A stretch of 63,924 nucleotides of DNA, the filler included. It is 5 parts of 5 records of this genome, joined end to end, with 100 filler letters (N's around TTAATTAATTAA, not from the genome) between each part and the next. Parts side by side here need not be neighbours in the genome. Positions count along the whole stretch, not along the records: positions 36,033 to 57,142 come from SRR31156797_5364; 4 more parts are not named here. The stretch is one strand, 5' to 3'. The number at the start of each line of letters is the position of its first letter. The first letter of the stretch is position 1. Position numbers and translations under genes: made by a program. Shown here in pieces: positions 36,033-57,142 of this stretch. Below the pieces are notes generated by a model, which did no database searches, was not told where the DNA came from, and worked only from the letters and a program-made list of their open reading frames with translations.

Positions 36033-36080
36033 AGATCCGAGGAGTGAACGCCATATTTCCTACCATAAAAACAATTTGAT

Positions 36081-36107
36081 TGTGACCACTGCAAATTATC
36101 TCGTCTA
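36081..36107 (+). promoter_or_regulatory. Putative ECF sigma promoter, copy 1
   Basis: TGTGAC-N15-CGTCTA upstream of 36161. Confidence 0.7.
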
Positions 36108-36160
36108 AAATTACACCTCATAAATTAAATTGTAATCAGAATAGAGCGAGGAATTAGCGA

Positions 36161-36541
36161 ATGAAAGAAAAGTTTAATTATATCTACGACAGCACAAACC
36201 ATATCGTATTTAAAAATTATTTTGGAAAAGTTAGAGTTCACGACATAATACAATCCTGGGATTTTGCATTTACCAATAACCTATTTCCATCAAATGTTAA
36301 AAGATTCATTCTTAATTATAGAAAGGCAAGTATTGAATTAAATACAAAAAGTCACATTGATATCTCATCTTATTATCAAGAGCGAATATCAATGTTTCGG
36401 GATTCAAAAATTGCAATCATAGTAAACACTCCTGAAGCAACGGCAATTTCGGTATTATTTAGCACCCTGGATGATGGATATCAATCTAAACCTTTTTCTA
36501 CTGTGAAAGCAGCAAAAAGTTGGGTATTGCAACTTAATTAA
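36161..36541 (+). CDS. Hypothetical protein, possibly SpoIIAA/STAS-like fold
   Basis: 126 aa; KIAIIV...PFSTVKAAKSWV ending typical of SpoIIAA-like proteins. Confidence 0.7.
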   Translation: MKEKFNYIYDSTNHIVFKNYFGKVRVHDIIQSWDFAFTNNLFPSNVKRFILNYRKASIELNTKSHIDISSYYQERISMFRDSKIAIIVNTPEATAISVLFSTLDDGYQSKPFSTVKAAKSWVLQLN

Positions 36542-36544
36542 GTT

Positions 36545-36570
36545 ACCGACGATACTGAATGATCGTCGGT
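36545..36570. terminator. Stem-loop between convergent genes
   Basis: ACCGACGAT-ACTGAATG-ATCGTCGGT. Confidence 0.6.
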
Positions 36571-36575
36571 TAATT

Positions 36576-37649
36576 TTATAACCATCTTTTTCTCTTAAAC
36601 CAAATGATCATTATAATAGCAACTACAAACATCACACTCAAAAGTGTATAATATCCATAATTGTAATTCAATTCGGGCATATTAGAAAAATTCATGCCAT
36701 AAATTCCAGCCAAAAATGTTAGAGGAATAAAAATTGTTGCAATTAGAGTAAGTAATTTCATTACCTGATTCAATTGATTATCTTGAATTGCCTGATAAGA
36801 GTCGTTTATCGCAGAAAGATTTTCTCTTAAAAAATCCAATTGATCTATTATATACAAGATATGATCTTTTGTATCTCTAAAATATTTCCTATTCTCCTTT
36901 TCAATAAGTGATAATTCATCATTTACCACAACTGAATATGCATCTTTCAAAGGAGCTATACCTCTTCTAGCTCTTAAAAATACTTTTCTATACTCTCTTA
37001 TGGTTTCCGGAACATCAATTGGAGAAGGGCTAATTATTTCATCATCTAAAGATTCTAATGTATCATTTCCTGTCTCAATTAACTCGAAATAATTGTCAAT
37101 AACTACATCTGCCAATGCAAAAAGCAAATAATCCGCTCCTTTGCTTCTTATTTTTTTAGGCTGATTTCTAAGTCTGAAAATCGCCGAATCAAAAATCGGT
37201 TCTTCAAAATCTACAAATGATAACAAAAACCGATCTCCAAGAATGAAATGAACAGGAACTGAACCATATGACAACTCATCCAAATCGGTTAAAACTAACT
37301 TAATGGAAAGAAGGTAATAATTCTCAAACTTTTCAAATTTAGGTCTTAAAGAACTATTTAAGATATCTTCTAATACCAAATCATGAATTCCGAACTGCTC
37401 TCCAAGATTTTCTAATGCACTAACATCAACCCCTTTGAAGTTTATCCAAGTAACATAATTTGCTGAAGGCTTCGGATATTTTATATCTGCTATATCCGTT
37501 TTATACTCATCAAATTTAATCTCATCAACATTATATTGCACCACCTGAATAGACGCATTACTCACACGCTTTTTTCCAATATGCATAAGGGTTCCAGGCG
37601 ACATCCCTTTCTTTGTTGAATTTCTTTTAATTTTTTTATTTCCCATCAT
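36576..37649 (-). CDS. corA: Magnesium/cobalt transporter CorA
   Basis: GMSPGTL, IHDLVLEDI, RPK, KLLTLIATIFIPLTFLAGIYGMNF..MPEL, KRKRWL. Confidence 0.95.
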   Translation of the reverse strand: MMGNKKIKRNSTKKGMSPGTLMHIGKKRVSNASIQVVQYNVDEIKFDEYKTDIADIKYPKPSANYVTWINFKGVDVSALENLGEQFGIHDLVLEDILNSSLRPKFEKFENYYLLSIKLVLTDLDELSYGSVPVHFILGDRFLLSFVDFEEPIFDSAIFRLRNQPKKIRSKGADYLLFALADVVIDNYFELIETGNDTLESLDDEIISPSPIDVPETIREYRKVFLRARRGIAPLKDAYSVVVNDELSLIEKENRKYFRDTKDHILYIIDQLDFLRENLSAINDSYQAIQDNQLNQVMKLLTLIATIFIPLTFLAGIYGMNFSNMPELNYNYGYYTLLSVMFVVAIIMIIWFKRKRWL

Positions 37650-37723
37650 GCAAGCAGTTGCAAATAATACTATATTTAATATTGTTTCTATAAGATAAAT
37701 TTAATCAATATTATTAATACAAT

Positions 37724-38596
37724 ATGGCAACCATTGAAAGTATTTTAAAGGATTTAGGAATAGGATACAAGGTTCTATTTATAATATTTGCAATAGTTAT
37801 TGGGTTCATTGCAGCAAAATTGATCCGATACTTTATGAATCGACTTGTAATTAAATCAGTAAAAAAACTGAATGCTGATCCAACTAACTATAATTTCTTA
37901 AAAAATGCTGTTAGTTTTTTAATCTTCATTATTGTTATTATCATCATTTTCTATTCAATTCCTGAACTTAAAAGTATTGGCGTAAGCTTATTGGCAAGTG
38001 CAGGGATTTTAGCCGCAATTGTAGGATTTGCTTCACAACAAGCATTCTCGAATATTGTAAGTGGAATATTCGTTGTCATCTTCAAACCGTTTCGCGTTGG
38101 TGATTTTATAAAAATTGGTGAATTACATTTTGGTACTGTTGAGGATATAACCCTAAGACACACAGTCATTAAAAATCCTGAAAACAGAAGAGTTATAATT
38201 CCAAATTCTGTAATCAGCTCGGAAACAATACTTAATTCAACCATTGCCGATCCTAAAGTTTGTGCATTTTTGGAAATTGGGATTAGTTATTTTTCTTCGA
38301 TAGATAAAGCGATTTCAATCATTCGATCTGAATCTGAAAAACACCCTAATTTAATTGATAATAGAACTGATTCAGAAATAGAAGAAGGCGTTGACAAAAT
38401 AGTTGTGCGAGTTATTCAACTAACTGATTCAAGTGTTTTATTAAGAGCATATATCTGGGCTGAAAATTCAGGTAGTGCCTTTGTTATGAAATGTGATTTA
38501 TTGAAATCGATCAAGGAAAATTTTGATAAAAATGACATTGAAATTCCATTTCCACACCAAACATTATACCTAAGAAAAAGCACTAAACCAGAATAA
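37724..38596 (+). CDS. MscS family mechanosensitive channel
   Basis: GFASQQAFSNIVSG, KPFRVGD, GTVEDITLRHT, IPNS, IEIPFP. Confidence 0.93.
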   Translation: MATIESILKDLGIGYKVLFIIFAIVIGFIAAKLIRYFMNRLVIKSVKKLNADPTNYNFLKNAVSFLIFIIVIIIIFYSIPELKSIGVSLLASAGILAAIVGFASQQAFSNIVSGIFVVIFKPFRVGDFIKIGELHFGTVEDITLRHTVIKNPENRRVIIPNSVISSETILNSTIADPKVCAFLEIGISYFSSIDKAISIIRSESEKHPNLIDNRTDSEIEEGVDKIVVRVIQLTDSSVLLRAYIWAENSGSAFVMKCDLLKSIKENFDKNDIEIPFPHQTLYLRKSTKPE

Positions 38597-38672: not shown

Positions 38673-40838
38673 ATGAAAGTTGCGATAATTTACAACAAAG
38701 ATTTTGAGGGAGTTATAAACATTTTTGGTATGCAAAACAAAGAAGTTTACTCCCCGGCCACTGTGCAAAAAGTTGTTGACGCTCTGGAAAAAGGAGGGCA
38801 TAACGTTGCAGTTATAGATGGCAATATGCATGTGGTTGAAAGACTTCAAAATTTTATGCCAAAAGTTGTTGATGGAGAACAGATGGGAATGGTTTTCAAT
38901 ATGGCTTATGGTATCCAAGGAGAAAGTCGCTACACTCATATTCCATCAATGCTTGAAATGTTGGGTATACCTTATGTAGGTTCTTCTCCATCAGGACATG
39001 CACTTGCATTGGATAAAGTTATCACCAAGATCATGTGGCAAAAGCATGGCATTTCGACTCCCGATTTCTGGGTATTCAACAGTGCCAATGATGACATGAG
39101 CAATGTCAAATATCCAGTGATTGTGAAACCTAAAATGGAAAGTGTTTCATTTGGATTAAAGGTCGTTTACAATGAAGAGGATCTTAGAGAATCTGTAAAC
39201 TTTATTGTAAAAGAATTTCAACAGCAAGCACTAGCAGAACAATTTATTAGAGGAAGAGAGTTTTGCGTTGGGATTCTAGGCAATGAGCCGGTTGAAACTT
39301 TTCCTATCCTGGAAATTGATTTAAACAATGATCCTGATGCCATACAAACTGTAACTGATAAAAAAGAGGCTCCTAAAAGAAAAATTTGCCCTGCCGATTT
39401 ACCCAAAGAGGTAGCAAACGAAATGGTACGTCAAAGTATTGAAGCCTTTAAAGCCCTTCAATTAAGAGATTTTGCAAGAGTTGATATTAGAATGGATGAA
39501 AATAACAACATCTACTTATTAGAAATCAATTCGATGGCAAGCCTAGGATTCACAGGTTCTTATCCTGCGGCAGCAAAAGTTTCTGGTTATGACTACGATG
39601 ATTTAGTTAATAAGATGCTTGATGTTGCATCTGTAAGGTATTTTTCTGGTAGCATTTTAAATCAATCCAGTCAAAAACCTAAAAAACCATTACTTCATAC
39701 AAGAATTAGAGGTTTCCTAAGAGGTAGACAACCACAGCATTTAAAAATGCTTCAAAAAATTGTTAACATGAACTCTCATGTTAGGGACATCGATGGGGTA
39801 AATCAACTTGGCAATTATTTGAAAGGTCAGTTTGCCACGCTCGGTTTTGTGCAGGAAAACTACCCTCAAATTGAAGTTGGGAACCATTTGTTTTTCACAA
39901 ATTCCTATGACAACGAATATGATGTCCTTCTTTTAGGAGTACTTGACAATTCCACACCTTTATCAAAACATGAATCCTACAATGAACAGGATCAAAAAAT
40001 TTATGGTACTGGTGCATGGGAACACAAAGGAGGTTTAATTGTAGCAATGGCTGCACTACAAGCTTTAAAATACTCAAGAAACCTAAAAAATTACAGAATT
40101 GGAATTTTACTAACTACAGATAATTCTGTGTTCGGGAAATTCTCACGAAGAGTGGTAAAAGAGAAGGCAGCCAAATCGAAAGTAGTAATTGGTTTACATG
40201 GTTCGAACACGGAAGGTAGTTTAACTACATCAAGAAGTGGATCTGCTAAATATAGTTGCCAAATGAACTTGTTACCTAGTGAGCGTTCGGAGAAAGTTGC
40301 TAATGCAGCAAGTGCTTTTTCAAAAATGGTTCAAACCTGGTGTGATTTATCTGTTGATGATGACAGTTTGGTTATAGCTCCTCAGGAAATGCGATTAAAT
40401 ACCAATATTATGCAATCTTATTGCAGTGGTTCTGTACAATTAAACATCCGATTCAATCAAAATGATCAGTTTAAAACTTTAGATGAAAATATTAAGAAAG
40501 CCGTTCCTTTACGCAAACTTAATAAGATCGCTAAACTTCAAATGGAAGGTGGAATTATGAGACCTCCATTGGAAGAGAATAAAAAGACTGATCAATTCTT
40601 TCAATTTATTCAGCCTATTGCAAAAAAATTAGACATTCGAGTGGCAAAAGAACACCGATGGGATTCTTCGGATATTTGTTCAATTGACACAGGCATGTTT
40701 TTGATAGATGGATTTGGTCCTAGTGGTCAGATTAATCCAAAACAGTCAGAGTTTATATACACACATAGTATCTCGGAAAGATCTTTGCTTTTGGCAATGA
40801 CAATACACGGACTCTACAATAGAAACTTTGAAATATAA
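38673..40838 (+). CDS. Fusion: D-Ala-D-Ala-ligase-like ATP-grasp domain + M20 peptidase-like domain lacking metal ligands
   Basis: ATP-grasp GIPYVGS, LDKVITK, VKP, EQFIRGREF, RVDIR, LEINSM. M20 scaffold with GVLDNS, GTGAWEHKGG, TDNS, DGFGP. Probable ATG at 38673. Confidence 0.85.
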   Translation: MKVAIIYNKDFEGVINIFGMQNKEVYSPATVQKVVDALEKGGHNVAVIDGNMHVVERLQNFMPKVVDGEQMGMVFNMAYGIQGESRYTHIPSMLEMLGIPYVGSSPSGHALALDKVITKIMWQKHGISTPDFWVFNSANDDMSNVKYPVIVKPKMESVSFGLKVVYNEEDLRESVNFIVKEFQQQALAEQFIRGREFCVGILGNEPVETFPILEIDLNNDPDAIQTVTDKKEAPKRKICPADLPKEVANEMVRQSIEAFKALQLRDFARVDIRMDENNNIYLLEINSMASLGFTGSYPAAAKVSGYDYDDLVNKMLDVASVRYFSGSILNQSSQKPKKPLLHTRIRGFLRGRQPQHLKMLQKIVNMNSHVRDIDGVNQLGNYLKGQFATLGFVQENYPQIEVGNHLFFTNSYDNEYDVLLLGVLDNSTPLSKHESYNEQDQKIYGTGAWEHKGGLIVAMAALQALKYSRNLKNYRIGILLTTDNSVFGKFSRRVVKEKAAKSKVVIGLHGSNTEGSLTTSRSGSAKYSCQMNLLPSERSEKVANAASAFSKMVQTWCDLSVDDDSLVIAPQEMRLNTNIMQSYCSGSVQLNIRFNQNDQFKTLDENIKKAVPLRKLNKIAKLQMEGGIMRPPLEENKKTDQFFQFIQPIAKKLDIRVAKEHRWDSSDICSIDTGMFLIDGFGPSGQINPKQSEFIYTHSISERSLLLAMTIHGLYNRNFEI

Positions 40839-40854
40839 TATCTTGTGCGGTCTT

Positions 40855-41436
40855 TTATTCACAAGAGAGACCGCACATTTTTAGAAAATTAATCATGATC
40901 TGAATTCCCGCCTCGCCAGAAACTTCCGGATGTGATTGAAAACCGTAAATTGGCTTAGATTTATGACGAATAATTTCATTGTAACAGGTATCACTCTCAC
41001 CTATAGAGATAAAGTTAGGTGGTAGTTGAGAAACATGCCATCCATGTTTTTTTACGAGAGGAATAGCTTCAAGATTAATAGATTCAAATATTGGATCCTT
41101 CTTATCTGTTATTCGCACAACCTCTTTTTTGTTATTGTATGCCTTTAATTTTTTAATCCTTCCTCTATTTGCAACAGCAATAATTTCATGCCCCAAACAT
41201 AAACCCAATACAGGAACCTGAAAATTCAACATGGCTACAAAATTAGTTGTCAGGTTTAGTGGTTCATAAGGATTTCCTCTTCCCCCTGATAGAATTATCC
41301 CTTGTATGTTTGCCTTTTCAGGTAAATTTAAGGGCTGATTATGATCGAAAAAAAACGTCTCGAAATCCATATCAGCCAAAAAGTTCCTCTTAAACTTTTT
41401 AATAAAAGCACTTTGATTGTCTATAATTAGCAGCAT
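40855..41436 (-). CDS. Class I glutamine amidotransferase (GMP synthase A subunit/TrpG-like, stand-alone)
   Basis: IIDNQS, IILSGG, LGLCLGHE (Cys), GFQSHPE (His-Glu); triad intact. Confidence 0.9.
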   Translation of the reverse strand: MLLIIDNQSAFIKKFKRNFLADMDFETFFFDHNQPLNLPEKANIQGIILSGGRGNPYEPLNLTTNFVAMLNFQVPVLGLCLGHEIIAVANRGRIKKLKAYNNKKEVVRITDKKDPIFESINLEAIPLVKKHGWHVSQLPPNFISIGESDTCYNEIIRHKSKPIYGFQSHPEVSGEAGIQIMINFLKMCGLSCE

Positions 41437-41437
41437 A

Positions 41438-42406
41438 TTAAATTGAATTTTTAATTGAAATAAAATTATCTTTTAATAATTCCTGAATAACTTTTTCAGT
41501 TAGCTCACTTTTAAATGCAAATTCATATCTAATGTCCATTACATAAGCTTTCAACCTCATCTTGTAACAAAGTTTATCATGCTTAATATCACTCACAAAT
41601 ATTACAACAATTGGCTTAGCTAAATATATGTACTGTGAAAGCTTAGCGACCTCAATTGCTATCTTTCTAACCTTTCTGGTATCTATTGTAATTGGTAAAA
41701 ATATTTCGGATACAACCTGACAATTAGTTTCTCCTGAATTGGAGTTAGAAATAGATTGATTCATTAATTCACCATTGGGTAAAGTAACAACCGAGTCATC
41801 CGCAGTATGAATTCTAGTTGACCTTAAAGACATATCTAAAACCTCTCCATATGTACTCCCTACTTCTATTTTATCTCCCACTTTAAAAGGTCTGTCAATT
41901 AAAATTACAAAACCTCCAAAAATATTTTTTAAAATGTCTTGAGCTGCAAAGCCTACAGCCACACCAACCGAAGCTCCAAATGCAATTAAAGATTCTAATG
42001 GCGGTCTAAAAATTCCTCCTACAATTATGTATGCAAGTATTGCCCAACATATTATTTTAATAATTGGGACAATTGCTTTCCCTTTAACCCTTCTTTCCGG
42101 AGTTCTTTCAGACCAAAGTTCAATCGTCCTGGTAAAAAACCGAATTGAGAAGTAACCGATTAGAACAAATACAATTGCCCAAAAAACTTTCGAAAAAGAA
42201 ATAATATTTGAAACTTTTGGAGGTTTCAATTTGTTTTCGAGAGTTTGTACTGCATTATCAATTTTACTTTTGACAGTATCAACTGCTACTACCTTGGAGA
42301 CTGTATCTAAAACTATTTCTTTTCCATAAGTAACATTACTTACTTGAGTAAAAAATAGTATTATCAACAGAATCAATAAATCCGTTATTTTAATCTTGCT
42401 CCTCAT
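41438..42406 (-). CDS. MscS family mechanosensitive channel
   Basis: GVAVGFAAQDILKNIFGG, DRPFKVGDKI, LRSTRI, LPNG. Confidence 0.92.
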   Translation of the reverse strand: MRSKIKITDLLILLIILFFTQVSNVTYGKEIVLDTVSKVVAVDTVKSKIDNAVQTLENKLKPPKVSNIISFSKVFWAIVFVLIGYFSIRFFTRTIELWSERTPERRVKGKAIVPIIKIICWAILAYIIVGGIFRPPLESLIAFGASVGVAVGFAAQDILKNIFGGFVILIDRPFKVGDKIEVGSTYGEVLDMSLRSTRIHTADDSVVTLPNGELMNQSISNSNSGETNCQVVSEIFLPITIDTRKVRKIAIEVAKLSQYIYLAKPIVVIFVSDIKHDKLCYKMRLKAYVMDIRYEFAFKSELTEKVIQELLKDNFISIKNSI

Positions 42407-45303
42407 TAATGTATGTAGTTTAATGATGTTAGATGATTTACAACCTGTCTATATATTAATGGGTTTATAGAATATTCGTTTTCTTTTTTGACTATTATAC
42501 CATCATCTACAAAGACCATCAATTGATTAGAACTATCCTTTTCAGTTAAGTTAAATACTTCCATATGATCTTCAATAGTCATTCTTCCATGTAAAACCAT
42601 GGCATATAAGGTAGCAAGTTGACTACTAGAAAGAGAATTGACAAAAACCAGATTCAAATTTTTAAATTGCATATTAAAAGTATTGTCCTCAACGCTTACA
42701 ATAGATCTCATCCAAAATAAAAGTGCCAATGACAAATTGTTCTGTGCATAATTAAATAACCTCTTAAAGTAATCTTCTTGAAGTGATGCCTGCTTATCAT
42801 TAAGCGTAAGCTTTTTAAAACTTCGTTTTTCAGAATAATTTTCAGGAGGAATAAAATGCAATTTATATCCACTAAACTTATGTCTATTTAATATTGATTC
42901 GGTTACCTGCTCATTAGACAATTTATCAAGCATTTCTATATGTGCATAATAGTTATTTATCCCTATCGAATAATCAAAGTATTTAAAGGTATAGAATAGG
43001 CAAGTGTTTAACCAGTATACTTTTGAATTTGTTTCTGATATTAGCTTAAACAAAGAGTACAATAAGTTAAAACCTCCCATTTTGCGAATATAAAGCTTAT
43101 GTATATTCTCAAGAATGATTATTTTGCGATTTTCACTTGACAATATAAACTCTCGTATCTCATCACAACTTTTCAACTCCTGATTATTTAGAGCATCCGA
43201 CAAAAGTTTAACAAACTCATTGTCTGTTTTTATTTTCCCATTTGGATTAATTCTAACAACCTGGTATTGATGACCAAATTTCTCTATAAATTCATTTACT
43301 AATGAAGTTAGTCCACTGCCAGTTTCACCAACCAAGCAAGTTGGCGCAAACTTACCTGAAGTCCAATTTGAATAGGCTTTCTCTAGTTGATTTACAACAA
43401 AAGGTCTTTTTATTCTAAATTTTGCATTCACCACAGGAGTGATGCTAAATAATCTTTGATACATTAATGGTAACTTTTCAATCGCAGCCTCTGTTTCTGA
43501 CAAATAATTAGACATTTCACTATTAATAGACGTATGTGAAACAGTCAAACCTAATACCTCTTTATATGAAGAGTACTTAGATCTTATATTCTTAAATATT
43601 GAATTTATCCTCAGGTAATATTCGTGTCCATTCTTTTTTACCATACTTAGGAAAGAAAAAGCATTTCTTTTTATATCTGACCAGACTCTTTTTCTATACA
43701 TCTGGATATGCTTTGACTTAAGTTGTTCAGGAGATATGGATACAGTAATCTCCCTTATCAGTTCGTAGTAGATCAATTGCAAACCTTTCTCTATCTCATT
43801 GGTAAATGTCTTAACGTAAGAAATTCGTTCAAAAGCACGTTTTTTCGCTCTCTCAATACCTTGTTTAAATTCATCAATATGCTGACTTTTGTCAACATCA
43901 ACATTGGACTGTAGGTATTCATTCGTATACTCAAGAATTCCAGAAAGTTCGTTCAAGTACACAATCGAATCATTTTGAAAATTTACCATTAAATCACTCT
44001 CCTTCTCAAGAGGTATTTTTATATACTCAACACACCACCCTTCAATTATTTCATACAACTCAAGTGTTTTTAAATGACTCCGAGATTTTACATTTTCCCA
44101 TTTCGTAACGAGAGGTAAATTGTATGAGCTATTAATTGATGATATTTCGTTATGAATCCTATCGTTTAATATTCCTATTTCCTTTTTTAGATCCAGTTTT
44201 AAAATTTGATGTAAATAAAATGGAATTTGATTTTTTAACAGTTCTTCATTAAGGCTTTTTTCTACTACTGTTATATCTATTTCCTCTTCCTTAAAACTAT
44301 CTGTAGTAATTTTTAATAAATCATATGTTTTTTGATCATTCAATTGAAAATATTCTTTTAATTGAATGGCTATGTATTTATTTGTCTCCTCAAAATTATC
44401 AAAAGATTTAAATCCAAACTTCCTTACTTTTTGAATCAACATCCAGTGATCCAATATCGATGAAATCCTAACATTGTATTTTTCAAAGAGTTTATTTCGT
44501 CGATTATTCAATATTGTATCATTTTTCTCTATTGCAGATGTAGATAGTTTTGAAATAGGAAACTCCACAGTATCAACTAAAAGTAACAAATACTCAAACT
44601 CTGATTGAAGCTCCGGAGTAAGTTCATCAAAGAAGATTTCCAAGTAATTGACAAAAGTATTATATTTTTCTTGTACGGATGAGATTACTTCTTCTACCTG
44701 CTTCAGGTCAATTCCCTCATTATTTAAAATCTTTCCTGTAATATCATGATCCAAGGCTTTTAGTTCAAGAAAAAAACTTTCTCTATTCTCTAAGGCTTCT
44801 GTTAAAACATCCTCAAATTTCTCATAAAACCTTTGTACAAATACATATTTTGCCAGCTGTCTATGCAATACAATTTGTTTTGCAGTTTTATAGGTTAAAA
44901 GTGATTTACCCGCTACCCGTCTAAATAAATTATAGACCCAAACCGCAAACCAACTTAACCTTAGTAATATTTTTTTGAAATATTTCAGAATCTTTAAAAG
45001 GAGTTTATCTTGAGAATTTGCATTGTACCTAGCAATTTCTTGAAATCTCTTTTCTTGCTCAGGAAAAGTCAAGATATGATCTTCAACTTCACTTAACAGA
45101 TCAATTATATCCTCATTGCTTATCACCCTATCACCATCAAAATCCTTCATCATTAAACTATCGAAAGATTGTGCATAATTTTCAAGATTCTCCAGAGTCT
45201 TTTTACCTTGATTCTCCTGCATAGCAAATGTCTTAAGAGCATCAATCACACTCTCGAAAGGTAAATACAGGGATACAATCTTAGCCGTAAATTTATGATA
45301 CAT
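42406..45303 (-). CDS. Large helical protein with C-terminal P-loop NTPase-like (AAA/STAND-like) domain and probable winged helix
   Basis: CLVGETGSGLTSL (Walker A without Lys), IIILENIH (Walker B-like); TAATG overlap with mscS. Confidence 0.75.
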   Translation of the reverse strand: MYHKFTAKIVSLYLPFESVIDALKTFAMQENQGKKTLENLENYAQSFDSLMMKDFDGDRVISNEDIIDLLSEVEDHILTFPEQEKRFQEIARYNANSQDKLLLKILKYFKKILLRLSWFAVWVYNLFRRVAGKSLLTYKTAKQIVLHRQLAKYVFVQRFYEKFEDVLTEALENRESFFLELKALDHDITGKILNNEGIDLKQVEEVISSVQEKYNTFVNYLEIFFDELTPELQSEFEYLLLLVDTVEFPISKLSTSAIEKNDTILNNRRNKLFEKYNVRISSILDHWMLIQKVRKFGFKSFDNFEETNKYIAIQLKEYFQLNDQKTYDLLKITTDSFKEEEIDITVVEKSLNEELLKNQIPFYLHQILKLDLKKEIGILNDRIHNEISSINSSYNLPLVTKWENVKSRSHLKTLELYEIIEGWCVEYIKIPLEKESDLMVNFQNDSIVYLNELSGILEYTNEYLQSNVDVDKSQHIDEFKQGIERAKKRAFERISYVKTFTNEIEKGLQLIYYELIREITVSISPEQLKSKHIQMYRKRVWSDIKRNAFSFLSMVKKNGHEYYLRINSIFKNIRSKYSSYKEVLGLTVSHTSINSEMSNYLSETEAAIEKLPLMYQRLFSITPVVNAKFRIKRPFVVNQLEKAYSNWTSGKFAPTCLVGETGSGLTSLVNEFIEKFGHQYQVVRINPNGKIKTDNEFVKLLSDALNNQELKSCDEIREFILSSENRKIIILENIHKLYIRKMGGFNLLYSLFKLISETNSKVYWLNTCLFYTFKYFDYSIGINNYYAHIEMLDKLSNEQVTESILNRHKFSGYKLHFIPPENYSEKRSFKKLTLNDKQASLQEDYFKRLFNYAQNNLSLALLFWMRSIVSVEDNTFNMQFKNLNLVFVNSLSSSQLATLYAMVLHGRMTIEDHMEVFNLTEKDSSNQLMVFVDDGIIVKKENEYSINPLIYRQVVNHLTSLNYIH

Positions 45304-45444
45304 TAGTCTAACCTATTTATCTATGAGTTACATTAAATTACGAAAAACTTTCGTCATTTCTACCATTACACTTCTGTAAGCGATATACTAACAGAAGGTT
45401 ACATTGTTACCATAATTGAATAGAAGAAATAAGATCTTATTAAT

Positions 45445-49554: not shown

Positions 49555-49582
49555 TGTGACCGAATTCTCTTTTTATCGTCTA
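49555..49582 (+). promoter_or_regulatory. Putative ECF sigma promoter, copy 3
   Basis: TGTGAC-N16-CGTCTA. Confidence 0.65.
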
Positions 49583-49603
49583 ATAATTAAATCGCAGACA
49601 AAT

Positions 49604-49838: not shown

Positions 49839-50474
49839 CTACTCCACCAATTTATTCCTAAACGCATACTTAACCAACCCAGCAGTATTTTTAACAGCCA
49901 ACTTTTCCATTAAATTCCTTCTATGTGTATCAACTGTTCTAACACTAACAAATAACTGCTTGGCAATCTCATTGTTCGAATATTCCTGAGCAATTAATTT
50001 AAGGACTTCAATCTCGCGCTTTGTAAGAGAAACAATTGATTCACTCCTAGAATTTTCAGTACGTCCATACATAAGACATCTTGATACCTCCTTACTTAAA
50101 TATGTATCACCAACGGCAACACATTTTATTGCTCGCATCATTTCCTCTTTACCAGCATTTTTAAGAATATAGCCGACTGCACCAACTTCTAACATTTTAA
50201 CTACGTATTCTTTATCTCCATGCATAGACACTGCCAAAACATTTACTCTTTCATCAAGTAATTTTATCTTCCTTGTCAGATCAATACCATTAGTTGTTCC
50301 CATATCAATATCCATTAAAACAACATCAGGCTGAAAAGTTTTGACGATTTCTAAAATATCCTTCTCATTATCCGCATCTCCACAAACCTCGATCATCTTT
50401 TCTTTTTGCAGAAGTGCTTTAATACCTTCTCTAAACATTTTGTGATCATCCGCTATTGCGATATTTATTTTCAT
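49839..50474 (-). CDS. NarL/LuxR family response regulator
   Basis: IADDH, MDIDM, GYILK, LTKREIEVL..IA..LFVSVRTVDTHRRNLMEKL. Confidence 0.95.
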   Translation of the reverse strand: MKINIAIADDHKMFREGIKALLQKEKMIEVCGDADNEKDILEIVKTFQPDVVLMDIDMGTTNGIDLTRKIKLLDERVNVLAVSMHGDKEYVVKMLEVGAVGYILKNAGKEEMMRAIKCVAVGDTYLSKEVSRCLMYGRTENSRSESIVSLTKREIEVLKLIAQEYSNNEIAKQLFVSVRTVDTHRRNLMEKLAVKNTAGLVKYAFRNKLVE

Positions 50475-50479: not shown

Positions 50480-51508
50480 CTATTTTTCTAATGGTATTTC
50501 AATAGTAGCTGTAACTCCTTTTGAAATTGCAGTATCCAAAATAAAATTACCCCCAAATGCATTGGTTCGAGATTCAACATTAATTAATCCTACCCCAGGA
50601 TTTTCACGCATTATTTGATTTTTATCAAATCCATTTCCATTATCTTCAACCATTAATATTATACTGTCTGGATGTTCAACAAACTGCACCTGGACTTCCG
50701 ATGCACCAGAATGTTTAACTGCATTATTGATTAACTCCTGACACATTCTATACATTCCTAGCTCAACTAATTCTGCAAATCTCTTACTAACAACAGAATG
50801 AAAAAATGTAATTTTAATTTTTTCAGCTCGATTAATTCTATTCGCCAAATTCTCTAGTGCTGGAATAATTCCAAAATCAAGCAATACTTTCGGCATTAAC
50901 TGATGCGAAATATCCCGAATGTCACCTGTTAAAGAATCAATCAGCTCCAAAACTTCGGACATTTGACAATTAAATCTTGACGCATTTAACCTAAAGGATT
51001 CTGAGGAAATTGCTTCCAACAAAAGCCTTACCGTTGAAAGTGTCGGACCAATTCCATCATGAATTTCTTTAGCAATACGCCTTCTCTCAATCTCCTGTCC
51101 CTCTAACATTGAATTCAGCGCCACCATCTCCATCTCTTTATCTCTGGTAATATCTTCAATTGTAACAACATACCCCTCCTTTATTTTTCTCCCTCTGATA
51201 TTTAAAAACTTGTCATTAAACTGCAATGATTCCAAGTTAAATGCCTGGTATTGGTTTTCAATTATCTGATTCAATTTTATCTGAAGGGGCTCAATATGTT
51301 TAATTTGATCAAAAATGACTACTTCATTTAATTCATCTGAATTGATCTCAAGTTTTAATAAGGATATAGCCTGATCATTGACAAGTACAATTTGATCACA
51401 ATTGTCCAATGCAATCATTCCATAAGGAGCATTTTTCACAACTGAATTTAAAAGATCCTTTATGTTGTCATTAGTTGTATAGCCTGTCATATAGATGTTT
51501 TTATTCAT
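50480..51508 (-). CDS. Cytoplasmic PAS sensor histidine kinase (HisKA_3)
   Basis: QEIERRRIAKEIHDGIG, QELINNAVKHS, EDNGNGF, GVGL; no TM segment. Confidence 0.92.
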   Translation of the reverse strand: MNKNIYMTGYTTNDNIKDLLNSVVKNAPYGMIALDNCDQIVLVNDQAISLLKLEINSDELNEVVIFDQIKHIEPLQIKLNQIIENQYQAFNLESLQFNDKFLNIRGRKIKEGYVVTIEDITRDKEMEMVALNSMLEGQEIERRRIAKEIHDGIGPTLSTVRLLLEAISSESFRLNASRFNCQMSEVLELIDSLTGDIRDISHQLMPKVLLDFGIIPALENLANRINRAEKIKITFFHSVVSKRFAELVELGMYRMCQELINNAVKHSGASEVQVQFVEHPDSIILMVEDNGNGFDKNQIMRENPGVGLINVESRTNAFGGNFILDTAISKGVTATIEIPLEK

Positions 51509-51578: not shown

Positions 51579-51605
51579 TGTGACTTTTTTCTTAATATGC
51601 GTCAT
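51579..51605 (+). promoter_or_regulatory. Putative ECF sigma promoter, copy 4
   Basis: TGTGAC-N15-CGTCAT. Confidence 0.65.
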
Positions 51606-51645
51606 AAAGATGTAAAAGAAGTTGTATAATTTAATACTTAAAATC

Positions 51646-51795
51646 ATGTCCAAGACGATTAGAAATTTCATATCTGACAAGGGTATGAAATCAAACAGAA
51701 ACAGAAAACCTATAAAATCTTACTCAAAAAAGAAATTATTACAGGATTATTATCAAGGAATTCTACATGATGAACATTGCTTGAGATACAATTAA
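51646..51795 (+). CDS. Putative 49-aa basic small protein
   Basis: MSKTIRNFISDKGMKSNRNRKPIKSYSKKKLLQDYYQGILHDEHCLRYN*; A-rich leader, ECF motif upstream, hairpin downstream; below the ORF-track cutoff. Confidence 0.5.
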   Translation: MSKTIRNFISDKGMKSNRNRKPIKSYSKKKLLQDYYQGILHDEHCLRYN

Positions 51796-51806
51796 AACAA
51801 TTTAAG

Positions 51807-51832
51807 AGTAGGTGAAATCACCTACTTTCTTT
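51807..51832 (+). promoter_or_regulatory. 9-2-9 palindrome (terminator of the small ORF and/or LuxR-family binding site)
   Basis: AGTAGGTGA-AA-TCACCTACT followed by TTCTTT. Confidence 0.5.
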
Positions 51833-51910: not shown

Positions 51911-52486
51911 ATGATTAAATGGATAAAAATGAAAAGGTCTGAAAATTGGAACATTACTGATGAACAGTTAGTACAAAATTACCTGGCAGGTGATACATCC
52001 TGTTTAGGTATTCTATATGAACGACATTTTAATAAGGTCTATTTTAAATGTTTATCATTTACAAAAAAAAATGATGAAGCATATGATTTGGTTCATGAAA
52101 TTTTCCTAAAAACAATCGACAAACTACACTTATTTAAAGGAAATTCTGAATTTTCAACATGGCTGTATCGAATATCACAAAATTTTTGCATTGAGTATTA
52201 CAGAAAAAATAAACGTTTTACATACTCAGATCTTTCCAAGTGGGTTTATGATATTGCCGATGAAGAATATGAACCGAGTAAATTGGATAATCTATCTATA
52301 GATACTGTTATAAATTCCATTTCCGAGAGCGAACAATTAATGCTTAGACTCAAATACATGGAAGGTAAAAGTGTAAAAGAATTACAAAACCAATTTCAAC
52401 TTGGTTCGAGCGCAATAAAAATGAGATTACAAAGAGCAAAACAAAAAATTGCAAAGCAAATCAAATTTTCAAATGATTTAATGTGA
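51911..52486 (+). CDS. ECF RNA polymerase sigma factor
   Basis: DEQLV, LYERH, DLVHEIF, FKGNSEFSTWLYRISQNFC, LKYMEGKSVKE, SAIKMRLQRAK; alternative start at 51929. Confidence 0.93.
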   Translation: MIKWIKMKRSENWNITDEQLVQNYLAGDTSCLGILYERHFNKVYFKCLSFTKKNDEAYDLVHEIFLKTIDKLHLFKGNSEFSTWLYRISQNFCIEYYRKNKRFTYSDLSKWVYDIADEEYEPSKLDNLSIDTVINSISESEQLMLRLKYMEGKSVKELQNQFQLGSSAIKMRLQRAKQKIAKQIKFSNDLM

Positions 52487-52508
52487 CTTTTAAGTTATTA
52501 CCTGTCTA
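52482..52508 (+). promoter_or_regulatory. Putative ECF sigma promoter, copy 5 (overlaps the sigma stop codon)
   Basis: TGTGAC-N15-TGTCTA. Confidence 0.6.
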
Positions 52509-52732
52509 ATAAATATTAAGGGTAATAAATACATATTTGCAGTAAAATGAGATGAACATTTTCACAAAAAAGGATTAATAATTAGATGTCGGTTTGTTTA
52601 GTGTGGACCAATCTAGACATCATAATACGTAAATTATCTTGTTATAACTAAAATTTAATCTTTAGAGTGAAATAGGAAGTGTTACTATTTCAATGATGTA
52701 TCACTTCCTATCATCTCTTCTTTTTAACTAAA

Positions 52733-53749
52733 ATGAAAAAACGAGAAGTTCTAAAAAAAAGTGTGCGAAACACAGATATAACCGCTTTTGATTCTACAAT
52801 GCTATTAAATGGATTGCATGAAAATTCTGGCAAACTTGGAGAACTAAAAGAAGGCATTGATATCTATTTAAAGATGCTAAGTGATAAATCATGCAGTATC
52901 ATCCTCGCTATTTCAAGTAATACCAATGCAACCGGTTGTCTAAAGGTATTTTCTGATTTGATTAAACACAAACTAGTAGATGCTATCGTTATAAGCGGGA
53001 AAAATATTATTGACATAGATTTCTTTGAAGCTCTCGGATTCAATAATTACCATGGAAGTAAAAATATCTCTGATACTAAACTGAGAGAACTTTATATAAA
53101 TAGGAGCTCTAATTATTTTGTTGATGAAGATGACCTTTTAGTTATTGACGAAACCATAAAGGAAATCGCGGATCAATTATCTCCAAGACCCTATTCATCG
53201 AGAGAATTTCTATATGAACTTGGTAAATACTTAGAGCTTTATGGCAGTAAGAAGGAATCAATAATTCAAACAGCATATGAAAATTCAATTCCAATTTTCT
53301 GTCCAGATATAACTTTTAGCAGAGCTGGATATGGTTTATTAAAGCACTACTTTGAAAGTACAAAACATCATTTAATAATAGACACATTAAAAGATTTAAG
53401 AGAACTTGGAGAAATCAATAGGTCATCTTCTTCGACAGGAATTGTGGCAATTGGAGAAGATTGTTTAACAGATTTAGCATTTAATACAATAAAATATTCA
53501 GAACAAGTTGGAGGGCAAGCCCATGCTTATAAATATGCTTTGCTTTTTAGTGATATTAACTCCGGAGATCGGGCTTGCCATTCCTCCAACCTTAAGGATG
53601 CAATATCAAAAGGGTTTGTAAAGGGAAATTTAAAGAAACACATCTATATGGACACGAATATATCCCTACCACTATTAGGTAGTTATTTATTTCATTCCAA
53701 GAGTCAATATTCGCGTACGCATCGAAATTTATTGAAAATTTATTTATAA
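52733..53749 (+). CDS. Deoxyhypusine synthase-family paralogue with substituted active site (probable pseudoenzyme)
   Basis: DHS scaffold (VDAIV, DFFEALG, PYSSREF, IPIFCP, DLREL), but GGG loop reads GEDCL and SWGK reads SKGF. Confidence 0.8.
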   Translation: MKKREVLKKSVRNTDITAFDSTMLLNGLHENSGKLGELKEGIDIYLKMLSDKSCSIILAISSNTNATGCLKVFSDLIKHKLVDAIVISGKNIIDIDFFEALGFNNYHGSKNISDTKLRELYINRSSNYFVDEDDLLVIDETIKEIADQLSPRPYSSREFLYELGKYLELYGSKKESIIQTAYENSIPIFCPDITFSRAGYGLLKHYFESTKHHLIIDTLKDLRELGEINRSSSSTGIVAIGEDCLTDLAFNTIKYSEQVGGQAHAYKYALLFSDINSGDRACHSSNLKDAISKGFVKGNLKKHIYMDTNISLPLLGSYLFHSKSQYSRTHRNLLKIYL

Positions 53750-53861: not shown

Positions 53862-55379
53862 ATGACAAAACAAAAAATAGAATTACGCCATTTAAAATAC
53901 GATGATTATTATGCTCTTAAAGAAGTATCTACAGAAGCTTATTCTGGAATAGGTGGGCAATTTTGGAGTAAATCAGATCTAAAAAAATTACTAAAAATAT
54001 TCCCTGAAGGGCAAATTTGTATTGAAATCAACAATAAAGTTGTAGCATGTGCTCTCTCAATAATAGTCGATTACAAAAAAATTGGCTATCAACATACATA
54101 CCAAGAAGTTACTGGAAATTACACTTTCTCAACTCATTCACTTGAAGGAGATGTTTTATATGGGATAGAAGTATTAGTACATCCTGAACATCGAGATAAA
54201 AGGCTTGGACGAAGGTTATATGATGCGCGAAAAGAATTGTGTGAGCAACTAAACTTAAAATCTATAATTGCAGGCGGAAGAATACCAAATTATATCAACT
54301 ATGTAGATAAAATAAATCCACGAACTTATATTGAAAAAGTTAAAAACAAAGAAATAGCTGACCCTGTGTTAGGTTTCCAACTTGCAAATGACTTTCACGT
54401 AAAAAAAGTACTAAAAGGTTATTTACCTGGAGATAGCGAATCACAAGAATTTGCTACTCTATTAGAGTGGAACAACATTTATTACCAAGAAAATACACAT
54501 CTGATAAATACCCCAAAAACAATTGTTAGGATTGGAATTGTTCAGTGGCAAATGAGATTATTTGACAACCAGGATAGTTTAATTGAACAAGTAGAATATT
54601 TTATTGACTCATTAAGCCGATACAATGTCGATTTCATTATGCTACCTGAACTTTTTCATGCACCATTACTTGCTAATTATAAGGGTAAAAACGAATCTAA
54701 AGCCATTCGGAAATTAGCTTTAGTTTCTAATTCACTAAAAACTGTTTTTATTGATTTTGCTATTAAATACAATAGCAATATAATTGCAGGTGGAATTCCA
54801 ATAATAGATAACAACCAACTAAAATGCATCTCTTATTTATTTCGCCGAGATGGGACAATTGATCACCAATTGAAAATTCACCCAACACCTTCAGAATCGG
54901 CATACTGGGGAATGAAAGGTGGTGATGAAATTAAAGTTTTATCAACAGACTGTGGAAATATTGGAATTCTGTCAAGCTATGATGTCGAATTTCCTGAACT
55001 TTCTCGAATAATGTCGCGAGAAAATATTGAAATATTATTTGTTCCTTTTATATCAGACACAAAAAACAGTTATTATAGGATTAGACGATGTGCGCAAGCA
55101 AGAGCAATAGAAAATGAATGTTATGTAGCAATTGCAGGTTGTGTAGGTAACTTACCAAAAGTTTCTAACATGGATGTTCAATATGCTCAATCAGCAATAT
55201 TTACACCATCAGATTTTTCTTTTCCAACAGATGCGATCTTAGCAGAAGCAACACCCAATACAGAAATGACATTAGTAGCTGATCTGGACTTAAGTTTACT
55301 AAAAGTACTGCATGAATTTGGTACTCTACAAAACTTAAAAAACATGAGAAATAATTTATATAAAACTGAAAAATTTTAA
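53862..55379 (+). CDS. GNAT acetyltransferase / carbon-nitrogen hydrolase fusion; nitrilase nucleophile Cys replaced by Ser
   Basis: FPEGQ, LYGIEV..HPEHR..RLGRRLY, GGRIP; nitrilase PELF, KIH.TP, GILSSYDVEFPE, ARAIENECYV. Confidence 0.9.
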   Translation: MTKQKIELRHLKYDDYYALKEVSTEAYSGIGGQFWSKSDLKKLLKIFPEGQICIEINNKVVACALSIIVDYKKIGYQHTYQEVTGNYTFSTHSLEGDVLYGIEVLVHPEHRDKRLGRRLYDARKELCEQLNLKSIIAGGRIPNYINYVDKINPRTYIEKVKNKEIADPVLGFQLANDFHVKKVLKGYLPGDSESQEFATLLEWNNIYYQENTHLINTPKTIVRIGIVQWQMRLFDNQDSLIEQVEYFIDSLSRYNVDFIMLPELFHAPLLANYKGKNESKAIRKLALVSNSLKTVFIDFAIKYNSNIIAGGIPIIDNNQLKCISYLFRRDGTIDHQLKIHPTPSESAYWGMKGGDEIKVLSTDCGNIGILSSYDVEFPELSRIMSRENIEILFVPFISDTKNSYYRIRRCAQARAIENECYVAIAGCVGNLPKVSNMDVQYAQSAIFTPSDFSFPTDAILAEATPNTEMTLVADLDLSLLKVLHEFGTLQNLKNMRNNLYKTEKF

Positions 55380-55388
55380 TCCATACGA

Positions 55389-55415
55389 TGTGACGTAAAT
55401 ATTATTTAGCGTCTA
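55389..55415 (+). promoter_or_regulatory. Putative ECF sigma promoter, copy 6
   Basis: TGTGAC-N15-CGTCTA. Confidence 0.7.
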
Positions 55416-55443
55416 AATGTCATAATTCATAAAACGAGAAGAA

Positions 55444-55920
55444 ATGAAAAAATTATTAATTCTATTAATTGGTCTTGCTCCTTTGTTTTCAAATGCACAA
55501 GATTTTGATCTACCTAAAAAGATTGAAAATGTTTTTAATAAAATGTTCGAAGATGCTGAAGATATTTTTTGGTCTGAAGTTGATAATGGCTATGAAGCAT
55601 CTTTTTATGTCGATGAAGATTATAAATTGGCAGTATTCTCTATAGATGGAATATGGATTGAAACAGCTATAAATCTTAACATTGAAATAGCTTCAACTGA
55701 AATAGCAAAAGCTATTTATAAAAAGTTTAATACACATACCATTGATAATATTTTCCAAGTTGAGACAGCAAATAAAAAACAATTTTACAGGCTTCAAATT
55801 GATGATGGAGACGCAGTCTATATTGTGAAAATGTCGTATGAATTTGAGATTTTAGAATCTCAAAAAGTTTCTGACTCTTCAATATCTGATGATTTTGAAT
55901 TAGAAGAAGAGGAAGAATAA
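55444..55920 (+). CDS. Secreted PepSY-like/DUF2874 protein
   Basis: Signal peptide; LPKKIENVFNKMF..A..I.W...YEASF...FSIDGIWIET; acidic tail. Confidence 0.75.
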   Translation: MKKLLILLIGLAPLFSNAQDFDLPKKIENVFNKMFEDAEDIFWSEVDNGYEASFYVDEDYKLAVFSIDGIWIETAINLNIEIASTEIAKAIYKKFNTHTIDNIFQVETANKKQFYRLQIDDGDAVYIVKMSYEFEILESQKVSDSSISDDFELEEEEE

Positions 55921-55957
55921 AAGTCATCAATATCTTTGCTTATGATGCCAGATGACT

Positions 55958-55985
55958 AGCCATCCCCTCCCAGGATGGCTTTTCT
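55958..55985. terminator. Terminator between convergent genes
   Basis: AGCCATCC-CCTCCCA-GGATGGCT-TTTC. Confidence 0.65.
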
Positions 55986-55999
55986 TATTGTAATAAATA

Positions 56000-56860
56000 T
56001 CAGACCATCGGATTTGACTCTCTAGACTTCACATGCAAGTCTAATTGTGGAAATGGAATTACTATTTTATTTTCAATAAATTTTCTATTAATATTTATTC
56101 GAATATCACTTTTAATTCTCTCAATTCTAAAAACATTTTCGCTAAAAAATAAAACCTGAAAATCTAATGATGAAGTGCCAAAACTTATAAACCGAGCCTC
56201 TATTAAATCTTTTTCGAATATTTCTTCATGCTCGTGAACACTATTCTTCAATACCTTAATTACTAAATCCACATCACTACCATAGGCGACACCAACACCT
56301 ATTCTAAAACGTGTCTTTTTAGTTTGATGACTCCAATTAATCACTTTATTCGTAGTTATTAGTGAGTTAGGAATAATAATGGAGATATCATCTCTATTTA
56401 ATCCTTTCGATGTTCTAAGTCCAATCTCTTGAATCTTTATAATATCATCATCAATTTCTAATATATCTCCTAACTTTACAGATCTTTCCGTTAAAAGAAT
56501 AACCCCTGAAATAATATCATTAAAAGTTTGCTGTAAACCCAAACCTACACCTACAAGTAAGGCCGCAGAACCAGCTAGTAGTAAGGTTAATTTAATTCCA
56601 ATTGTTTCTAACATTAATCCGAATGCAATAATCCAGATAAAATATTTAATAATCTGAAATAGCGCATAGGTACTACCAGTATCAAGTTTCTTGAAGCGCT
56701 GTTTTCTAAACAGTGCTTTTTTAATCAACCATAAAAGGATGATTGTTACTAATATGATAATTAACACACTCAATAATTCGATAACTGTAAGAGAATAATT
56801 ATTGAATTTTATTAATTCAAAATTTAGAAATACCTTAAATGTTCTCATATATTCAATCAT
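56000..56860 (-). CDS. MscS family mechanosensitive channel
   Basis: LLVGVGLGLQQTFNDIISG, IGLRTS, IPNS, VINWS, VGVAYGSD, IPFPQ. Confidence 0.93.
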   Translation of the reverse strand: MIEYMRTFKVFLNFELIKFNNYSLTVIELLSVLIIILVTIILLWLIKKALFRKQRFKKLDTGSTYALFQIIKYFIWIIAFGLMLETIGIKLTLLLAGSAALLVGVGLGLQQTFNDIISGVILLTERSVKLGDILEIDDDIIKIQEIGLRTSKGLNRDDISIIIPNSLITTNKVINWSHQTKKTRFRIGVGVAYGSDVDLVIKVLKNSVHEHEEIFEKDLIEARFISFGTSSLDFQVLFFSENVFRIERIKSDIRININRKFIENKIVIPFPQLDLHVKSRESNPMV

Positions 56861-57142
56861 TAAATAAACTATAATACTTGTTTACTATTGGGATTGTACC
56901 GCATTGTAAATCTAAAATTAACCAGGAATTTGGGTGAATATTAACTTTCCATCAAATATCCCGAAGTATTAATAAATTATACTACTTTATCTAAGTTACT
57001 AAGAATAAAATTAAGTGTTATTTTCCCCTTAGTATTACTGCCAATCAATGTAGTAATACGAATATACTCATCTATCAGGGTTGTAGGATACTGATTTTCG
57101 TAGACGATTTTAGTGAGTGTATCGCGAAAGCCTTCTCTCCTA

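Follow-up and report, generated by a model that had tools for sequence, protein, structure and literature searches.

A Marinifilaceae locus in which a candidate ECF sigma regulon adjoins a widespread ATP-grasp ligase, amidotransferase and polyamine gene cassette

Several described bacterial systems resemble, in part, the locus analyzed here, a single contig of 21,110 bp and ~31% GC at positions 36033-57142 of a 63,924-nucleotide stretch of DNA (the window). According to the main text of Li et al. (JBC 2026, PMC13625781), a triad of Winogradskyella algicola proteins makes homospermidine via diagmatine; the strings 'osmo' and 'stress' do not occur in that main text. PMC7826278 and PMC7641640 describe the Pseudomonas SigX/ECF102 locus, cmaX-cfrX-cmpX-sigX-oprF, in which an extracytoplasmic function (ECF) sigma factor is accompanied by CorA, MscS and a small protein; the text of PMC7641640 presents the SigX promoter consensus as not precisely defined, and a flavobacterial SigX homologue is predicted in bioRxiv 2020.06.23.168245 to control nearby cmpX and oprF. 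In the Rlo system, hypo-osmotic tolerance involves an ATP-grasp protein together with a dead transglutaminase (PMC12239564). Our contig joins two separable modules, a candidate local ECF regulon (module A) and a widespread metabolic cassette (module B). The reading that we prefer, to which we assign a probability of roughly two in five, is that the cassette would run a reversible glutamyl-amine ligase/hydrolase cycle for osmotic and cation balance, and that this cycle may have been partly captured by a SigX-like regulon.

The polyamine genes resemble the described SpeA-SpeY-SpeB pathway in their short, alanine racemase (AR)-fold arginine decarboxylase, SpeB and SpeY of 325 amino acids (aa), a triad in which the Lys is kept (PMC13625781). 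Unlike in that pathway, they are linked here to an uncharacterised ligase and class I glutamine amidotransferase (GATase) pair, and another gene of the SpeY type, a dead one, is linked to them as well. The speA, speB and first deoxyhypusine synthase (DHS) genes are clustered; the product of the last retains its catalytic Lys (WGK), falls below all NCBIfam cut-offs and equals the W. algicola SpeY in length. The genes of the cassette and its neighbours are as follows.

36576..37649, minus strand: CorA Mg/Co transporter (TIGR00383, 264.8 bits, above cut-off)
37724..38596, plus strand: MscS-family channel 1, mscS1 (PF00924, PF21082)
38673..40838, plus strand: ATP-grasp ligase of the Ddl fold with a fused, catalytically dead M20 (carboxypeptidase G2-fold) domain; 38673 is the likely start, and the longest open reading frame (ORF) runs from 38628
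40855..41436, minus strand: stand-alone class I GATase (PF00117), C80-H169-E171 triad intact
45900..47309, plus strand: speA, short alanine-racemase-fold arginine decarboxylase
47306..48160, plus strand: speB ureohydrolase, likely a diagmatine ureohydrolase (TIGR01230, above cut-off; PMC13625781)
48150..49127, plus strand: first of two DHS homologues (PF01916), 325 aa, a likely SpeY with its catalytic Lys (WGK) retained
49150..49485, plus strand: 111-aa acidic hypothetical protein, which accompanies speA-speB-speY (13 of 50 ligase loci) and matches unnamed Bacteroidota clusters only

The cassette was counted in 50 ligase-bearing loci obtained from a genome scan, 29 of which have ~10 kb of flanking sequence on each side. 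A window-like GATase is encoded in 41 of the 50 (and in 23 of the 29 with full flanks), MscS in 23 (13), speA in 21 (13), DHS in 20 (13), CorA in 15 (8), the GNAT-nitrilase fusion in 12 (5), a sigma-like match in 5 (3) and the P-loop protein in 4 (3). The GATase gene lies within 300 bp of the ligase in 32 of the 50 loci. These loci span Bacteroidota, Desulfobacterota, Planctomycetota, Spirochaetota and an archaeal metagenome-assembled genome (MAG), the gene order varies between them, and the speA linkage is found in several orders. MscS or CorA accompanies the ligase in 25 of the 50, including loci from Planctomycetota, Desulfobacterota and the archaeal MAG; in a planctomycete, a desulfobacterium and the archaeal MAG the ligase is flanked by MscK, or by MscS with CorA. 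The company that the ligase keeps with MscS and CorA extends across phyla, and 11 comparison flanks (167 kb, not randomly drawn) contain zero MscS, CorA or speA genes. Directly 3' of the ligase in a Desulfobulbaceae locus are potABCD-type polyamine transporter genes.

The ATP/metal motifs of the ligase's ATP-grasp domain are intact. It scores 179.6 bits against the D-Ala-D-Ala ligase family, whose cut-off of 243 is not reached, and its substrate loops, with the residues of the D-Ala site, differ in the alignment. The GATase triad C80-H169-E171 is invariant in 35 of 35 sequences. In two of the nine ligase loci that have no GATase, a gamma-glutamyltransferase (GGT) gene is found directly 3' of the ligase. 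GATase-fold PuuD and GGT both cleave gamma-glutamyl amides. Because the two alternative partners share this activity, and because neighbouring genes make or import polyamines, we favor a glutamyl-amine cycle; its osmotic context is suggested by the MscS/CorA linkage together with the Rlo precedent. The RimK-type genes of two relatives and the RloB-type fusions described below are counted in favor of this cycle as well.

In such a cycle, SpeA, SpeY and SpeB would make homospermidine from arginine via agmatine and diagmatine. The ATP-grasp domain, with ATP, would form an amide, likely the gamma-glutamyl amide of a polyamine or a related amine, the amine partner probably being the polyamine made by the neighboring genes. 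The class I GATase, or GGT in other lineages, would likely cleave that amide, as the swap between them suggests, and the dead M20 domain, with its lost ligands and conserved sequence (see below), would likely serve as a substrate-binding or dimerising scaffold. As members of their families, MscS and CorA would contribute solute release and Mg2+, respectively. The proposed logic of glutamylation followed by GATase-fold release recalls the PuuA/PuuD gamma-glutamyl-putrescine cycle, in which a glutamylated polyamine is released by a class I GATase-fold hydrolase; unlike the window's ligase, PuuA has a glutamine-synthetase fold and acts in catabolism, and the window GATase is closer to GuaA-type subunits.

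The same genes can be read as an amidation system, in which GATase ammonia from glutamine would pass to the ATP-grasp enzyme, as in carbamoyl-phosphate synthetase, to yield a neutral amide or peptide solute of the N-acetylglutaminylglutamine amide (NAGGN) kind that is released through MscS. The resemblance of the GATase to ammonia-donor subunits, its frequent position beside the ligase and the MscS link all agree with this explanation, as does the GNAT found in 12 of the 50 loci; GNAT is missing, however, from the other 38. The ligase is Ddl-like, and the NAGGN synthetase family is absent among its best 25 NCBIfam matches. Moreover, GGT substitutes for GATase in two loci; GGT is not known as a usual ammonia-donor subunit, which counts against amidation, and we consider this explanation unlikely. 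The original prediction had also cited NAGGN synthesis, in which ATP-grasp, amidotransferase and GNAT activities work together in an osmotic context. The analogy is a loose one, as different enzyme families are concerned: Ngg fuses a GNAT to an ATP-grasp domain, AsnO belongs to the class II amidotransferases, and neither an Ngg-type fusion nor a class II AsnO is encoded in the contig.

Another explanation is that the ligase acts in the manner of RimK or RloC, building a peptide or polymer rich in glutamate or tagging a protein, and that the polyamine genes are its neighbours only through a low-salt response shared with Mg2+ and MscS. With RimK/RimB and RloABC the locus has in common an ATP-grasp ligase accompanied by a cognate hydrolase and by a partner enzyme that is dead, and RimK/RimB-like genes occupy the same position in one relative: in G552, RimK, a RimB-like protease and a desuccinylase-like protein replace the ligase-GATase pair between mscS and speA. 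A RimB-RimK fusion lies at the other edge of the locus in G611, a GshB-like ligase is found 3' of the motif beside a related sigma factor, and the clade of this ligase (from a quick tree) is fused to an RloB-type seven-transmembrane domain in 5 of 44 scanned representatives. Unlike RimK and the Rlo proteins, the window's ligase is Ddl-like, its dead domain has the M20 fold, and its hydrolase is a GATase or GGT rather than a retropepsin; a RimK-type ligase and a retropepsin are absent from the window and present in G552 and G611. The potABCD adjacency points to polyamines instead, and the partner hydrolases are generally understood to act on gamma-glutamyl amides, not on alpha-polyglutamate. 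We regard a peptide or polymer product as rather improbable.

The regulatory module, with the motif sites found across the contig, consists of the following elements.

36082..36108, plus strand: ECF promoter-like motif 1, GTGAC-N15-CGTCTAA, upstream of the 126-aa ORF and also before its G611 homologue
36161..36541, plus strand: 126-aa hypothetical protein without a Pfam or NCBIfam match; 57% homologue in G611
45444..45470, minus strand: ECF promoter-like motif 2, upstream of the P-loop-mscS2-GATase unit; equivalents in G002 and G611
49514-49540: terminator-like hairpin just ahead of motif 3
49556..49583, plus strand: ECF promoter-like motif 3, conserved in G001, G002, G004, G552, G595 and G611
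49604..49837, plus strand: 77-aa hypothetical protein, conserved 3' of motif 3, without a significant Pfam match
49839..50474, minus strand: NarL/LuxR-type response regulator
50480..51508, minus strand: soluble PAS-HisKA_3 histidine kinase, no membrane-like segment predicted
51580..51606, plus strand: ECF promoter-like motif 4, sigma-proximal and likely autoregulatory, present in 7/7 relatives with the sigma
51646..51795, plus strand: 49-aa basic small ORF, a candidate sigma regulator
51806..51827, plus strand: conserved palindrome followed by a T run, a putative terminator or response-regulator site
51911..52486, plus strand: ECF sigma factor, likely start 51929
52483..52509, plus strand: ECF promoter-like motif 5, which overlaps the sigma stop codon and recurs at that position in G001, G002, G004, G595 and G611
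52549..52717, plus strand: conserved leader with a predicted fold
52733..53749, plus strand: second DHS homologue, catalytically dead (WGK>KGF)
53862..55379, plus strand: GNAT-nitrilase fusion, nitrilase Cys>Ser
55390..55416, plus strand: ECF promoter-like motif 6; equivalents in G001, G002, G004, G552, G595 and G611
55444..55920, plus strand: 158-aa acidic protein, PepSY-like by homology and likely exported

Five strict copies of GTGAC-N15-17-CGTC are found on the contig, against 0.03 expected from 300 dinucleotide shuffles, and the other four contigs of the window contain none. A weight matrix built from 16 sites of five genomes adds a sixth site, with one mismatch, at the sigma stop codon. 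The six copies, with the consensus GTGAC-N15/16-CGTCnAA, each point into a downstream gene: the 126-aa ORF, P-loop-mscS2-GATase, the 77-aa ORF, the 49-aa ORF and sigma, the second DHS, and the 158-aa protein. The same scan gave no site before corA, mscS1-ligase, speA-speB-DHS1 or mscS3 (the last within the 282 bp left to the contig end). The sigma orthologue occurs in 7 of 97 genomes of the Marinifilaceae family. At least two TGTGAC-N15/16-CGTCnAA sites are found in 7/7 genomes with the sigma vs 1/90 without it (Fisher p 6e-10, a value inflated by the kinship of the seven), and 19 of the 20 sites in sigma-bearing genomes lie within ~13 kb of the sigma gene. A more distant sigma with the same kinase-regulator pair (L087) has three such sites, and in a sister clade 6/6 loci carry GTTAC (once GTGAC)-N15/16-CGTC ahead of the sigma gene itself. 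This arrangement likely resembles that of autoregulated ECF promoters. A sigma-70 promoter scan, with 78 sites vs 102 expected, was uninformative. It may be added that the sister clade (L089-L094) has a PepSY-like gene on one side and, on the other, a divergent operon of lipoprotein and L,D-transpeptidase genes; both strands often carry GTTAC-N15/16-CGTC sites there, and a regulon of its own is predicted.

The extent of the regulon was read from the relatives' genomes. By correlation of motif with sigma, the factor likely recognises GTGAC-N15/16-CGTCnAA, and would likely drive the small ORF, the 126-, 77- and 158-aa proteins, the dead DHS and the GNAT-nitrilase fusion and, in some lineages, also the P-loop-MscS-GATase unit; the ligase and polyamine genes would likely be read from other promoters. 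Common to SigX/ECF102 and the locus are an ECF sigma in the vicinity of CorA and MscS genes, and a small protein of unassigned function under its own promoter. Unlike SigX, the window sigma scores 71.5 bits on the SigX family, whose cut-off of 194 is not reached; the window is without OprF, CfrX or an adjacent CmpX-type MscS; and its sigma is tied to a soluble kinase/NarL pair and to PepSY-like proteins. The 158-aa protein itself has no Pfam match, and its 25% homologue in L087 matches PF11396. A SigX family search of 301 Bacteroidota genomes returned six weak matches, none above the cut-off, and no SigX reference was among the matches listed in a plasmid search. The locus L096 has a layout of sigma, 62-aa ORF and CmpX-like gene; its sigma is 35% identical and outside the window clade, and the motif is absent.

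A basic ORF of 41-50 aa is located between the sigma-proximal site and the sigma gene in the window and in 7/7 relatives; its ratio of nonsynonymous to synonymous divergence (dN/dS) is 0.21-0.33, where, as in all ratios given here, dS is near saturation in most pairs, so that the values show constraint and are imprecise. The sigma had been described in the original prediction as having no adjacent anti-sigma gene. This ORF was overlooked, and because a conserved small basic ORF adjoins the sigma, the absence of an anti-sigma factor is not established. In L087, the slot between the motif and a related sigma (4231-4460) contains instead a 58-aa CxxC-CxxC protein. The leader of ~220 nt 3' of the sigma gene is predicted to fold and outlasts the loss of the second DHS in those relatives that have deleted it. 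Its covariation is no higher than in shuffles, and an Rfam scan gave two chance-level matches only, with the leader unmatched. A further hairpin with a T-rich tail (53787-53845), conserved in relatives, is found between the second DHS and GNAT-nitrilase, where it may uncouple or attenuate the downstream gene.

Four domains encoded on the contig have lost catalytic residues, as alignment confirms, and the ATP-grasp motifs, the GATase triad and the first DHS WGK are intact, as originally predicted. The domains differ in age. Relative to the metal-ligand and catalytic residues of carboxypeptidase G2 (CPG2), the M20 domain carries H>V, D>E, EE>NS and E>H. Its fold is present: the ligase model (predicted local distance difference test, pLDDT, 87) matches CPG2 and Ddl, with a Foldseek E of 1e-26 and a TM of 0.8 of target to CPG2; the two-metal ligands and the catalytic Glu are missing. 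Among 120 close homologues, the first His is kept in 2, the catalytic Glu in 7, and the next Glu and the third ligand Glu in none; among 30 distant representatives, the Glu-Glu pair is kept in none (one gapped), the first His in 14 and the last in 2. The loss is ancient and family-wide. Even so, 62 M20 positions are nearly invariant, and dN/dS is 0.04-0.10.

The nitrilase domain has Ser in place of Cys, with the Glu and Lys of the Glu-Lys-Cys triad kept. Cys is kept in 36 of 43 homologues and lost in seven (six Ser, one Gly), all in one clade with support of 0.998, whose sister G003 keeps Cys; dN/dS is 0.03-0.09, like that of the GNAT partner, and no intact second nitrilase copy is present in the five genomes checked. 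For the second DHS, more distant homologues keep WGK in 117/117 cases. Of 153 near-invariant positions, the window copy has retained 84 and the G003 copy, with Lys>Cys, 136. Degenerate copies were found only between this sigma and GNAT-nitrilase: of 34 matches in the family, 30 loci were examined, four with a degenerate copy and 26 with an intact one, mostly beside speB. The gene, with dN/dS of 0.08-0.24, is cleanly deleted in 3/7 relatives and more decayed in G552. An active DHS and a dead paralogue also share one genome in trypanosomatids (PDB 6dft chain B). There, the dead copy acts as a regulatory subunit; unlike it, the dead copy of the window belongs to another SpeY clade and is limited to a single lineage, and 3/7 relatives do without it. 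In the P-loop protein, the Walker A sequence is GETGSGLTS, with Lys>Leu; its homologues have Lys in 12 of 19, Arg in three and other residues in four, and dN/dS of the domain is 0.08.

Thus, the M20 loss is family-wide, those of the nitrilase and the second DHS restricted to one clade, and the P-loop Lys variable. Because they died at different times, the four pseudoenzymes do not form the one coordinated design that had been proposed; the expectation that the degenerate genes evolve under purifying selection, not neutrally, is borne out by their dN/dS ratios. Neutral decay of the M20 and nitrilase domains was rejected on the same low ratios. A more elaborate scheme is, in our opinion, doubtful: the ligase with its ancient dead-peptidase domain would reversibly glutamylate homospermidine, giving a new metabolite, in salt shifts, and the ECF regulon would have turned SpeY and nitrilase into non-catalytic polyamine sensors in one lineage, controlled via a small basic anti-sigma and a structured leader RNA.

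The ligase is present in 9 of the 97 family genomes, six of which are among the seven with the sigma. The seven relatives keep much of the window's gene set, with MscS within the locus in 7/7. The modules are found together in G595, G001, G002 and G003, three of which are without the P-loop-mscS2 pair; the order in G002 is permuted, its cluster being a circular permutation of the window order. In Marinifilum fragile and G611, the regulatory module and a 57%-identical ligase cassette are on separate contigs. Elsewhere, the neighbours of related sigmas are a GshB-like ligase, a methyltransferase-Ddl fusion (L086 2260-4239) or DgcN/DgcA-like genes (L088 543-6104, together with a creatininase-domain gene). 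A related element with type I restriction-modification genes flanks the cluster in G002:C83:32235-50000 and G001:C12:18500-30000, with an integrase-like ORF in G002.

Much of the original prediction holds. The listed genes (three MscS, CorA, speA-speB-DHS, kinase, NarL regulator and ECF sigma) are present and frame-intact, the kinase is soluble by the lack of a predicted membrane helix, the shared motif far exceeds chance and tracks the sigma among genomes, and synteny is conserved in relatives rather than scattered. The idea of one sigma-controlled unit does not: the ligase, speA-speB-speY, corA, mscS1 and mscS3 are without an upstream motif, a sigma-like match occurs in 5/50 ligase loci, and the modules are on separate contigs in two genomes. 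A single operon or regulon for all genes was rejected on these grounds. Nor are the limits of the presumed island biological. The finding spans exactly one contig, flanked on both sides by artificial N44-TTAATTAATTAA-N44 linkers, and 36033 and 57142 are therefore contig ends.

Several points weigh against a glutamyl-amine cycle partly captured by the regulon. Its chemistry is read from gene neighbours, and the GATase looks, by profile search, most like GMP synthase subunit A, an ammonia donor (best NCBIfam match, 107 bits, under cut-off; Peptidase_C26 of Pfam, 25 bits). Within 10 kb, speA is absent from 16 of the 29 full-flank ligase loci. The GNAT-nitrilase fusion is a common one, encoded in 83 of 301 Bacteroidota genomes and for the most part away from the cassette genes. 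The seven sigma genomes are close kin, so that the motif correlation does not amount to seven independent tests, and the dN/dS ratios are rough at near-saturated dS. A mere hotspot of unrelated stress genes, with the dead second DHS and nitrilase as relics kept only for folding, would fit the separation and rearrangement of modules in relatives, the deletion and further decay of the second DHS and the related integrase and restriction-modification element that flanks the locus in two genomes, but is quite improbable given that the ligase-GATase-spe-MscS linkage recurs across families and phyla and that nitrilase dN/dS is on par with that of its GNAT partner.

The source organism is a marine Marinifilaceae bacterium (Bacteroidota), since its ligase shares 98% identity with the Ancylomarina sp. 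DW003 enzyme and 92% with the one from Marinifilum sp. D714. The Ancylomarina ligase (L001 3970-6739) is nearly identical to the window's, with dS of ~0.2, and dS of most neighbour genes is >1.2, which suggests a recent transfer of the ligase. A chimeric assembly was rejected on even coverage and on bridging contigs from a separate study: the likely source sequencing run shows even depth over 37000-56900, long near-identical contigs from an oyster-metagenome run cover all 30 bins, and contigs of that run bridge 41262-47888 and 47867-52646. The window comprises five contigs, with linkers at 9203-9302, 16823-16922, 35933-36032 and 57143-57242 and GC from ~28% to 51%, and these likely come from different organisms. 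By translation only, the preceding contig (29820-35656) encodes ROK kinase-, GntR- and tripartite transporter-like ORFs, unrelated to the locus, and the high-GC contig that follows (57582-63924) encodes glycosyltransferase-, TPR- and nucleotide-sugar dehydrogenase-like ORFs.

The remaining genes of the contig encode the P-loop protein and two channels.

41438..42406, minus strand: MscS-family channel 2 (mscS2), coupled to the P-loop protein
42406..45303, minus strand: helical protein of 965 aa whose P-loop (AAA_22-like) domain is C-terminal, Walker A Lys>Leu
56000..56860, minus strand: MscS-family channel 3 (mscS3)

The P-loop/MscS pair is a third unit, with mostly different neighbours otherwise: the P-loop protein is found in 58 of 301 Bacteroidota genomes, and the same MscS type is present in 19 of 20 fetched loci. 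A single-sequence fold of the 965-aa protein reached a pLDDT of 35 and was not used. As a conserved, uncharacterised pair (L131-L150), the ~1000-aa protein and its coupled MscS occur in roughly one in five of the Bacteroidota genomes sampled.

The literature searched, which lay mainly outside subscription papers and ECF-classification supplements, describes neither the ligase-GATase cassette nor the sigma regulon. The analysis adds the GATase variant, a regulon defined by its motif, the small ORF, the leader and the relative ages of the pseudoenzymes. The GATase-for-GGT swap, together with polyamine synthesis and uptake neighbors, narrows the chemistry of an uncharacterised ligase family to a few candidates open to assay. 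A promoter motif and a small regulon are also supplied for a Bacteroidota ECF clade that is unstudied and occurs in named isolates of Marinifilum and Ancylomarina. Pseudoenzymes of three ages stand side by side in the locus, and the decay of SpeY is graded from intact to deleted, so that their roles are testable. An osmotic link would also bear on what homospermidine does in the cell, of which little is known.

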